From: Escherichia coli
GTDB lineage: Bacteria; Pseudomonadota; Gammaproteobacteria; Enterobacterales; Enterobacteriaceae
NCBI RefSeq assembly: GCF_044647545.1
Contig: NZ_CP172818.1
Direction: 5' to 3' (one strand)
DNA length: 64,000 bases
Positions within the stretch are counted from its first letter, which is position 1. The number at the start of each line of letters is the position of its first letter. This document shows positions 1,401 to 4,427 of this stretch, one piece after another. Position numbers and translations under genes: made by a program. The notes below the pieces were generated by a model. It had not been told where the DNA came from and made no database searches. It worked only from the letters and a program-made list of their open reading frames with translations.

Positions 1401-2321
1401 ATGTTTCCACAATGCAAATTTTCCCGCGAGTTTCTGCATCCTCGCTACTGGCTCACGTGGTTTGGGCTTGGTGTACTCTGGCTTTGGGTACAGCTTCCTT
1501 ATCCTGTTCTCTGCTTTCTCGGCACGCGTATCGGCACAATGGCGCGACCATTCCTGAAACGTCGTGAATCTATCGCCCGTAAAAACCTGGAACTTTGCTT
1601 CCCACAGCATTCTGCGGAAGAACGCGAGAAGATGATTGCCGAAAACTTTCGTTCACTCGGCATGGCGCTGGTAGAAACCGGCATGGCATGGTTCTGGCCC
1701 GACAGTCGCGTACGTAAATGGTTTGATGTTGAAGGGTTGGATAACCTTAAACGCGCACAAATGCAAAATCGCGGCGTAATGGTTGTCGGCGTCCATTTTA
1801 TGTCGCTGGAACTGGGCGGCCGCGTGATGGGACTGTGCCAACCAATGATGGCCACCTATCGTCCACATAATAATCAGCTGATGGAATGGGTGCAGACCCG
1901 TGGTCGCATGCGCTCTAACAAAGCGATGATCGGCAGAAATAATCTGCGCGGCATTGTCGGTGCACTGAAGAAAGGTGAAGCGGTATGGTTTGCTCCCGAT
2001 CAGGATTATGGTCGTAAAGGCAGCTCCTTCGCGCCGTTCTTTGCGGTGGAAAATGTCGCCACAACCAATGGCACCTATGTCCTCTCTCGTCTCTCTGGCG
2101 CAGCCATGTTGACCGTAACGATGGTAAGAAAAGCGGATTACAGCGGATATCGTTTGTACATCACCCCAGAGATGGAAGGCTACCCGGCAGATGAAAATCA
2201 AGCCGCTGCCTATATGAACAAGATTATCGAAAAAGAGATCATGCGCGCACCGGAGCAGTACCTCTGGATCCACCGTCGCTTTAAAACGCGCCCGGTGGGA
2301 GAATCGTCGCTATACATTTAA
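1401..2321 (+). CDS. lpxP: lipid A biosynthesis palmitoleoyl acyltransferase (cold-induced LpxL paralog)
   Basis: ORF track frame 1335-2321; internal ATG at 1401 preceded by GAAGG gives 306 aa beginning MFPQCKFSREFLHPRYW, typical of the LpxL/LpxP family. Confidence 0.9.
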   Translation: MFPQCKFSREFLHPRYWLTWFGLGVLWLWVQLPYPVLCFLGTRIGTMARPFLKRRESIARKNLELCFPQHSAEEREKMIAENFRSLGMALVETGMAWFWPDSRVRKWFDVEGLDNLKRAQMQNRGVMVVGVHFMSLELGGRVMGLCQPMMATYRPHNNQLMEWVQTRGRMRSNKAMIGRNNLRGIVGALKKGEAVWFAPDQDYGRKGSSFAPFFAVENVATTNGTYVLSRLSGAAMLTVTMVRKADYSGYRLYITPEMEGYPADENQAAAYMNKIIEKEIMRAPEQYLWIHRRFKTRPVGESSLYI

Positions 2322-2676
2322 CAAACTGCTCTTACTCTTTCCCTCCTCAAATCAGCCATAATAACCTCATGGTTTTTATGGCTTTTTTCTTAAGGTTTTT
2401 TCCTTCGCTGAATCTCTAATTATTACCGTCAGAAATTAAACTGTCGCCGATATGAGACACCTGTAAGTTACTAAAAGTAAATAAGAAAATGCCTCTTGTC
2501 TCGTTTCAGTTTTAGGCGTACATTAGCGCCGTCTGGAGCAGTTTAGCTCAGAATTCTGGGGTGATGCCCACGGTAAAATACAGGACTTTTAAGGTCGTTT
2601 TGCCCGGTGTCAACTCACTGTATCAGGTGTAATGAAGTCATTCAGGCGTAACAGTAATTACGCGGAGAGATGTAAA

Positions 2677-2748
2677 GTGAAATATTTCTTTATGGGCATT
2701 TCTTTTATGGTCATCGTTTGGGCCGGTACTTTTGCCCTGATGATCTAA
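2677..2748 (+). CDS. ypdK: small membrane protein (23 aa), GTG start
   Basis: GTG at 2677 preceded by GGAGAG (2664-2669); translation (M)KYFFMGISFMVIVWAGTFALMI then TAA; followed by a hairpin terminator. Confidence 0.55.
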   Translation: MKYFFMGISFMVIVWAGTFALMI

Positions 2749-2764
2749 AAGCAAACTGTGCAAT

Positions 2765-2795
2765 GAAAAACAGGAGCCATCTGGCTCCTGTTTGC
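2765..2795. terminator. bidirectional intrinsic terminator between ypdK and alaC
   Basis: Hairpin caggagcc-atct-ggctcctg at 2771-2790, flanked by an A-run upstream and a T-rich tract downstream. Confidence 0.5.
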
Positions 2796-2812
2796 ATTTC
2801 TGTCGATGGTGT

Positions 2813-4051
2813 TTATTCCGCGTTTTCGTGAATATGTTTGCTGCTGGCGGGTAGTAAACCGTCGGCACGGAACATCGCTTTAATTCCACGAATCGCCTGG
2901 CGAATACGATCGCGGTTTTCAATCAGTGCAAAGCGAACATGGGTGTCGCCGTAGTCGCCAAAGCCAATCCCTGGAGAGACACAGACCTTCGCTTCGTTAA
3001 GCATTTTCTTGGCAAATTCCAGTGAACCCATGGCCGCATACGGTTCCGGGATTTTCGCCCAGACATACATCGAAGCCTTCGGCATTTCGACCATCCAGCC
3101 CGCTTCATGCAGCCCTTTTACCAGTACATCACGGCGGCGTTTGTACTGTTCGGCAATGTCGCGCACGCACTGTTGATCGCCCTCCAGCGCCGCAATCGCT
3201 GCCACCTGCAACGGCGTAAAGGTGCCGTAATCGTGATAGCTTTTAATACGTGCCAACGCGCTGACCAGCGTTTTGTTACCGACCATAAAGCCGATACGCC
3301 AGCCCGCCATGTTGTAGCTTTTCGACAGCGTAAAGAACTCGACTGCCACATCGCGTGCACCTGGCACCTGCATGATTGACGGCGCTTTCCAGCCATCGTA
3401 GACGATGTCCGCATAGGCCAGGTCATGGACCACCAGCACATCGTAGCGTTTCGCCAGCGCCACTACTTTTTCGAAGAACTCCAGCTCCACGCATTGCGCG
3501 GTTGGGTTCGACGGGAAGCCGAGGATCATCATCTTCGGTTTTGGATAACTTTCGCGAATGGCGCGTTCCAGTTCGTTGAAGAAATCGACACCTTCCACCA
3601 GCGGCACTGAGCGTACCTGCGCCCCGGCAATCACCGCGCCGTAAATATGAATCGGGTAGCTTGGATTAGGCACCAGTACAGTGTCACCATGATCCAGCGT
3701 CGCCAGCATCAGATGCGCCAGGCCCTCTTTCGAACCAATAGTGACGATGGCTTCTGATTCCGGGTCGATTTCAACGTCGTAGCGATCCTGATACCAGCGG
3801 GAAATGGCGCGACGTAGCCGCGGAATGCCGCGTGAAGTGGAGTAACCATGCGTGTCCGGGCGCTGGGCCACCGTACATAATTTTTCGACGATATGCGGCG
3901 GAGTCGCACCGTCCGGGTTACCCATACTGAAATCGATAATATCTTCGCCGCGCCGACGCGCAGCCATTTTCAGTTCAGCGGTAATGTTAAAAACGTAGGG
4001 CGGGAGACGATCAATACGCGTAAAGCGACGTTCAGGGCGAGTGTCAGCCAT
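2813..4051 (-). CDS. alaC: glutamate-pyruvate aminotransferase (class I PLP aminotransferase)
   Basis: 412 aa ORF; PLP-lysine region [10 protein letters not shown]; N-terminus [21 protein letters not shown] matches AlaC (YfdZ). Confidence 0.92.
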
Positions 4052-4427
4052 AATGTCCTCAGATTAACGTTAGCGCCCGGACCGTCCGAGCGACGCTGCC
4101 ACGATGGTGGCTGTTTTGAAAATAGCCTGATTAATTTCTGTCTGTCCAGCGTTTTAGAACATTTTTATCAATGGCTTTAAATGAGGAACTCCACTTCAAA
4201 AACAGGAAATTTATCTGCGCTAACAAGAAAATTACCACTCATTTTATTAACATTATAATTTCAATAAATTTACCAAGCAGATGTGCATTATCAAGAGATG
4301 CATTGCTAATACACCATTTATCCTTCAATCCCCTTTTAAAATTGTGGTTTTTCCTCAAAAACGGCCTGCTGGTCATCAGCCTTCAGGTTACCTATCATAG
4401 AGGTTTAATCCTTATTCAGAGTCACCC

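Follow-up and report, generated by a model that had tools for sequence, protein, structure and literature searches.

A GTG-initiated reading frame of 23 codons, lying between lpxP and alaC in a stretch of 64,000 nucleotides of Escherichia coli DNA (NCBI RefSeq contig NZ_CP172818.1; hereafter the window), is the already known gene ypdK, a correct gene call that is left unchanged by the present analysis. With a probability that we put at about 0.9, ypdK is an independent unit, made up of a promoter, a leader, the GTG start, 23 codons and a terminator shared with its neighbor, and encodes a membrane helix that packs against a larger protein. The features that enter into this reading are collected in Table 1.

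Table 1. Positions of ypdK, its putative control elements and its neighbors in the window
Feature	Position	Strand	Details
lpxP	1401–2321	+	Upstream neighbor; ORF list and RefSeq
Candidate ypdK promoter	2496–2524	+	−35 TTGTCT (2496–2501), 17-nt spacer, −10 TACATT (2519–2524)
Conserved motif GTACATTAG (consensus GTAYATTAG)	2518–2526	+	Contains the −10; CTCTTGT 17 nt upstream
Putative 5' leader	2531–2676	+	~146 nt; helices P2 and P3
Helix P2, long-range	2558–2568 paired with 2606–2616	+	RNAalifold, 34 leaders
Hairpin P3	GCGTAA 2646–2651 paired with TTACGC 2658–2663	+	6 bp, abuts the Shine-Dalgarno sequence; RNAalifold, 34 leaders
Shine-Dalgarno sequence GGAGAG	2664–2669	+	7 nt before GTG (2677–2679); read from sequence
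ypdK CDS	2677–2748	+	GTG start, 23 codons and TAA (2746–2748); product MKYFFMGISFMVIVWAGTFALMI
Intrinsic terminator hairpin, bidirectional (predicted)	2768–2793	both	11-bp stem, 4-nt loop; common to ypdK and alaC
alaC (alanine transaminase)	2813–4051	−	Convergent neighbor; ORF list and RefSeq

Identification of the reading frame as ypdK

The preliminary description of this DNA had singled out a GTG-started ORF of 23 codons between lpxP and alaC, preceded by the Shine-Dalgarno (SD) sequence GGAGAG at a spacing of 8 nt. The ORF is present on the plus strand at 2677–2748, its translation as read from the sequence being (M/V)KYFFMGISFMVIVWAGTFALMI, and GGAGAG likewise stands at 2664–2669, with the spacer to the GTG to be corrected to 7 nt. 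By itself an ORF of this size is not beyond chance, because the mechanical ORF list holds 94 ORFs of at least 20 amino acids in the first 6 kb of the window; this one is judged to be real because of its conservation, its annotation and the published expression data, taken together. The same list buries ypdK, giving at this place a 38-aa in-frame form that begins at ATG 2632 and an antisense ORF of 94 aa.

The identity with YpdK, which had been put forward in the preliminary description, is upheld by the annotation and by profile comparison alike. RefSeq has ypdK, "membrane protein YpdK" (WP_010723117.1), at coordinates that correspond exactly to window 2677–2748, and the peptide matches the NCBIfam equivalog NF033437 ("membrane protein YpdK") with 57.5 bits (E = 9.4e-16; curated cut-off 30 bits), residues 1–23 aligning with positions 1–23 of a profile that is 23 positions long. 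The 38-aa form matches this model through its residues 17–38 only, and the YpdK peptide is matched by no Pfam family. By megablast the lpxP–alaC intergenic region is found in 5422 of 5426 complete E. coli genomes, with a median of one place per genome, and the rows that were sampled from the best to the weakest all carry the annotation "ypdK: membrane protein YpdK". This intergenic DNA is 100% identical to that of strain FDAARGOS_497 and 98.2% identical to that of K-12 BW25113; the ypdK CDS maps to 2677–2748 in both the 100%-identical strain and BW25113, with ypdA lying beyond alaC, and the K-12 gene b4680 (NC_000913.3 2496921–2496992, GTG start) is identical in sequence to the window. Set beside YpdK as it is known (E. 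coli b4680; NF033437; WP_010723117.1), the ORF specifies the same protein from the same start, at the same length and at the same coordinates relative to lpxP and alaC, i.e., there is no difference and it is the same gene.

Conservation of the frame and selection on the encoded peptide

The comparison was extended to 80 loci from different Enterobacterales species (L003–L082), which were fetched with AlaC as the anchor because this anchor does not presuppose the ORF; counts given over 78 sequences refer to the 77 loci with the ORF and the window sequence. In 77 of the 80 loci a full-length YpdK homologue is encoded close to the 3' end of alaC and on the other strand; the species span Escherichia, Salmonella, Citrobacter, Klebsiella, Enterobacter, Buttiauxella, Cedecea, Pantoea, Mixta and "Erwinia". 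Among the three loci that lack the full ORF, two end at the edge of a contig and the third, L073 (Candidatus Pantoea haifensis), matches residues 7–23 only. In this last case it is the stretch 4299–4349 that aligns with YpdK (GNFFFVLLWVGTFVLML), which may reflect either divergence at the N-terminus or damage to the copy. Conservation of the frame in close relatives had been proposed as a check on the ORF, and it is borne out for frame, GTG and SD at 77 of the 80 loci, over a range that extends from Escherichia as far as Pantoea, Erwinia and Mixta.

Across two bacterial families the start codon of ypdK is GTG in all 78 sequences and never ATG or TTG. GGAG is equally constant (78/78), its first base lying 10–14 nt upstream of the GTG and most often at 13, and the product has 23 aa in 55 sequences and 24 aa in the remaining 23. 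When the 68 nucleotide versions that differ from one another are compared, the entropy of the columns is 0.51, 0.14 and 1.09 at the first, second and third codon positions, and the mean pN/pS is 0.25. Residues K2, M6, G7, S9, G17, T18 and F19 are invariant, with W15 and M22 nearly so, and at four of these invariant positions (G7, S9, G17 and T18) all four synonymous codons are nevertheless in use. As read from these alignments, the pattern of variation in ypdK is one of selection on the amino-acid sequence.

The same loci bear on whether the real product might instead be one of the longer frames of the ORF list, namely the ORF of 38 aa that begins at ATG 2632 or the antisense one of 94 aa (2638–2922, minus strand), a reading whose probability we regard as negligible. 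Both of these frames are open in the window, and the 38-aa form has the attraction of an ATG start, yet in 38 of the 78 loci the GTG is preceded, at a distance of 1–3 codons, by an in-frame stop, so that the extension is specific to E. coli, and the positions of alternative upstream starts are not conserved. The NCBIfam model spans the 23 residues only and not the longer form, which would, moreover, have to be read across the SD and the covarying hairpin P3. Stop codons interrupt the antisense frame in half of the sequences (39/78), including those of Salmonella and Citrobacter, in keeping with the earlier judgment that it is spurious; it would also cross the terminator, and the most variable class of columns falls on its first codon position. 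The 38-aa extension and the antisense ORF are both, as a result, refuted by conservation.

One further frame was considered in this region. Between the SD and the GTG of ypdK in the window there is an out-of-frame ATG-TAA start-stop pair (2670–2675). A conserved frame starting from the out-of-frame ATG at −7 was rejected, the ATG being found in 47 of the 78 loci and opening ORFs whose length varies between a single codon and over 50.

Published expression and a possibly weak start

The published record provides a transcript, ribosome footprints and a place among the known small ORFs. PMC3009722, which in this respect relays Hemm et al., counts ypdK among their 18 small ORFs as a putative single-transmembrane peptide, and reports its transcript to be induced by UV (log2FC 1.06). 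In the Ribo-seq study PMC10746267, ypdK (b4680) is listed as a "previously known sORF", with a footprint RPKM of 1.6–14, an RNA RPKM of 17–175 and a translation efficiency of 0.02–0.37, on a reading of the columns that was deduced from the third value being equal to RIBO/RNA. In one acid-stress comparison of the same study the ypdK mRNA goes up (log2FC 1.55, padj 0.003) and the footprints do not. The preliminary description had held that absence of ribosome occupancy would speak against the ORF; footprints are on record for b4680, at a low level. The supplements of the Salmonella small-protein census make no mention of ypdK. The invariance of the GTG suggests selection for weak initiation, since an exclusive use of this codon (78/78) goes together with a translation efficiency of 0.02–0.37.

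A candidate promoter upstream of ypdK

Upstream of ypdK lies a conserved motif, GTAnATTA[GC], which is found 73–171 nt (most often ~160 nt) before the GTG in 74 of the 78 loci, from Escherichia to Pantoea, against a chance expectation of 0.03 per 400 nt. At 66 of these 74 loci a TTG occurs at a fixed spacing upstream of the motif. A scan with consensus promoters missed this candidate because only 8 of its 12 positions match. The start that the candidate promoter predicts, at ~2531, agrees with the published tiling-array 5' end at ~2529. In the older K-12 coordinates of the PMC3009722 supplement the transcript runs from 2494795 to 2494997 and ypdK from 2494943 to 2495014; relative to the start codon the transcript therefore spans −148 to +55, its 5' end being 148 nt ahead of the GTG. 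Thus, on a match at the level of the consensus and a tiling-array 5' end of low resolution, ypdK probably has a sigma-70-like promoter of its own.

Most genera also have a −10-like box (CTATACT or TATAAT) ~55 nt upstream of the GTG (e.g., L019, L021, L036 and L046), whose E. coli counterpart at ~2616–2626, CTGTATC, is degenerate. Beside this box no convincing −35 was seen in the loci compared. It may represent a second promoter or an alternative start in genera other than Escherichia.

A putative structured leader and the question of an RNA function

Between the predicted start and the GTG there would be a leader of ~146 nt, for which the alignments support two helices. For P2 and P3 taken together, 93.6% of cells are paired as against 31–47% with slid partners, and 8 pairs display compensatory changes. 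P3 alone, when followed over 64 sequences, has 86% of cells paired and double-sided changes in each of its 6 pairs, a value that none of 500 shuffles reaches. A 5'-terminal hairpin, P1 (2532–2553), was set aside: it has compensatory changes by eye, but the first 36 nt of the leader fold no better than shuffles (mean z = −0.42). Against Rfam the leader finds no family, its best score being 24.3 bits (gathering score 65.6) to an unrelated plastid family, and no description of the conserved promoter motif or of the covarying leader was found either in Rfam or in the literature searched.

For E. coli the prediction is that the SD (GAGAGAUGU) pairs with codons 3–5 (AUAUUUCUU) in a structure extending over 2664–2693, with the GTG in the loop. 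The predicted probability that the SD is unpaired is 0.10 in E. coli, 0.76 in Salmonella and 0.01–0.78 overall. Sequestration of the SD was consequently rejected as a conserved mechanism, being predicted for E. coli and not for Salmonella or many other genera.

Overlapping the start of the 5' arm of P2, at 2549–2558, there is also a perfect palindrome of 10 nt, CAGAATTCTG; in Enterobacteriaceae it is for the most part conserved, with the consensus CAGAATTCTGAG. Its role may be that of a protein-binding site, or it may be no more than an element of the RNA structure.

Taken as a whole, the ~146-nt leader, with P2, P3, the GTG and the GTAYATTAG motif, may be seen as an undescribed cis-regulatory element that gates translation on some signal, or the transcript as a dual-function RNA of ~270 nt, a tentative proposal that we consider possible though rather unlikely; read-through from the convergent alaC might add a layer of antisense control. 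To go further and hold that the ypdK transcript is mainly a regulatory RNA, with an ORF that is incidental or weakly translated, is highly improbable. Such a role would fit the covariation in the leader helices, the sRNA-like size of a ~270-nt transcript and an mRNA far more abundant than its footprints; it is opposed by the signs of amino-acid-level selection within the ORF (third-position variation, use of four synonymous codons and the pN/pS of 0.25), by the invariance of both SD and start codon, by the place of ypdK in the small-ORF list of Hemm et al., as relayed by PMC3009722, and by the lack of a match in Rfam. Because of the codon-level selection a function as RNA only is excluded, and a dual function is still compatible with it.

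The predicted shared terminator and the pairing with alaC

Downstream, the preliminary description had seen a strong hairpin terminator directly after the ORF. The hairpin is there, with the sequence AAACAGGAGCC-ATCT-GGCTCCTGTTT and GC pairs at 6 of its 11 stem positions according to the terminator scan, and has a centroid energy of ~−19 kcal/mol (z = −3.7 on the plus and −4.0 on the minus strand against shuffles); "directly" does not hold, as it begins 19 nt after the stop. The hairpin is predicted to be bidirectional, serving alaC as well. It sits midway between the two genes, 19 nt from the stop of ypdK and 19 nt from that of alaC (2813). Around the hairpin core in the window, 6 of the 8 bases before are A and 5 of the 8 after are T. 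These features resemble those of the bidirectional intrinsic terminators of convergent genes, which have a GC-rich hairpin with A-run and T-run flanks midway between the stops. It is unlike them in the interrupted T-tract on the ypdK side of the window (TTTGCATTTCTG), the tract on the alaC side (TTTTTCATT) being the better one. A hairpin follows the ypdK stop in 76 of the 78 loci. In 52 of these 76 it is preceded by an A-run and followed by a T-run; between genera its stem differs in sequence with the pairing kept (e.g., CAGGAGCC, CAGGCGCC, GGGAGCC and GGGGCGAC).

The convergent pairing of ypdK with alaC is found in 77 of the 80 loci. In contrast, lpxP adjoins ypdK in only ~24 of the 78, being upstream of it only in Escherichia, Salmonella, Citrobacter and Enterobacter-like genera and absent from its flank in Klebsiella, Kosakonia, Pantoea and others. 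An operon with lpxP was rejected as a conserved arrangement, lpxP being a neighbor of ypdK only in some genera. Since lpxP is adjacent in so small a part of the loci while the promoter motif and the pairing with alaC persist, ypdK seems to be transcribed as a unit of its own.

A few departures from the usual spacing were encountered on either side. In Citrobacter (L005–L010 and L013) about 1 kb is inserted between lpxP and ypdK, as compared with the 326–437 nt that separate them in Escherichia and Salmonella. In Buttiauxella brennerae (L049) ypdK lies ~1.6 kb from alaC, the usual distance being ~55–70 nt, and therefore an insertion has occurred between the convergent pair. An O26:H11 STEC strain has been described with a Stx2a prophage of 102.6 kb in the 'mlaA-ypdK intergenic region' (PMC6667211).

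The peptide as a probable membrane helix and its possible partner

The steps of the mechanism that we favor can be set out as follows. The promoter at ~2496–2524 would drive a transcript of ~270 nt, consisting of the ~146-nt leader, the GGAG of the SD, the GTG at 2677 and the coding region up to the terminator at 2768–2793. The product would be almost entirely one hydrophobic helix (residues 4–23), a stretch with a mean Kyte-Doolittle value of 2.15, Lys2 being the only charged side chain of the peptide. It would insert in the inner membrane as a single-span helix of the tail-anchored type, and by the positive-inside rule Lys2 would be kept on the cytoplasmic side, with the C-terminus at the periplasmic face (N-in, C-out). 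There it would pack on a larger inner-membrane protein via M6, G7, S9, W15, G17, T18, F19 and M22, in the manner of other small membrane proteins of bacteria, and its expression would be deliberately weak by virtue of the invariant GTG and the low translation efficiency.

In these respects YpdK may be likened to the class of bacterial small membrane proteins (reviewed in PMC12648545). It shares with MgrB, AcrZ, MgtS and CydX, which are associated with PhoQ, AcrB, MgtA and cytochrome bd, respectively, a length of less than 50 aa, a single hydrophobic helix and a gene long missed by annotation, and it likewise has conserved small and aromatic residues in the helix, which suggest helix-helix packing. 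It differs from them in that, at 23 aa, it is essentially without a soluble tail, and the likeness proposed is one of function and not a matter of shared ancestry. By this analogy the conserved small and aromatic residues of the helix suggest a specific packing with another membrane protein; their conservation is also compatible with self-association or with an interaction with lipids. The neighborhood of ypdK points to no partner, because alaC encodes a cytosolic transaminase, and no assignment of a function to YpdK was found in the literature searched.

A parallel might also be struck with the type I toxins. As a class, these toxins have a patchy distribution, are often present in multiple copies, are accompanied by a cognate antisense or divergent sRNA gene and are toxic when over-expressed. 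By this reading, which we regard as improbable, YpdK would be a membrane-damaging peptide akin to them, whose translation is held down by the long, structured 5' UTR together with antisense RNA from read-through of alaC. With Ibs, ShoB, TisB and ZorO it has in common a very short and, at 23 aa, almost purely hydrophobic peptide, a 5' UTR that is both long and structured, and weak translation, as seen in its low translation efficiency. To these can be added the E. coli SD, which is predicted to be mostly paired (P unpaired 0.10), and the terminator in common with the convergent alaC, by which read-through would run antisense to ypdK. Unlike those toxins, however, ypdK is a single-copy gene (a median of one place per E. 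coli genome), is broadly conserved under purifying selection and keeps a strict synteny with alaC over at least two families. No gene for a dedicated antisense sRNA was found, the promoter scan of the window giving no dedicated antisense promoter-like site opposite the ORF; the sequestration of the SD is not conserved (P unpaired 0.01–0.78, with Salmonella at 0.76), and no reports of toxicity for YpdK were found in the literature searched.

Implications for small genes in Enterobacterales

The gene itself was already in RefSeq, with an NCBIfam model of its own, and counts among the known small proteins of E. coli. It can be seen as a positive control: a gene of fewer than 30 codons is recognizable from sequence even where ORF lists bury it or show an antisense ORF in its place. 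What comes new, as a side point, is that ypdK has an apparent conserved promoter of its own and a structured leader of ~146 nt. For work on the function of YpdK the comparative data assembled here, i.e., the invariant residues, the GTG, the promoter, the helices of the leader and a pairing that is with alaC and not with lpxP, may possibly prove to be of use.
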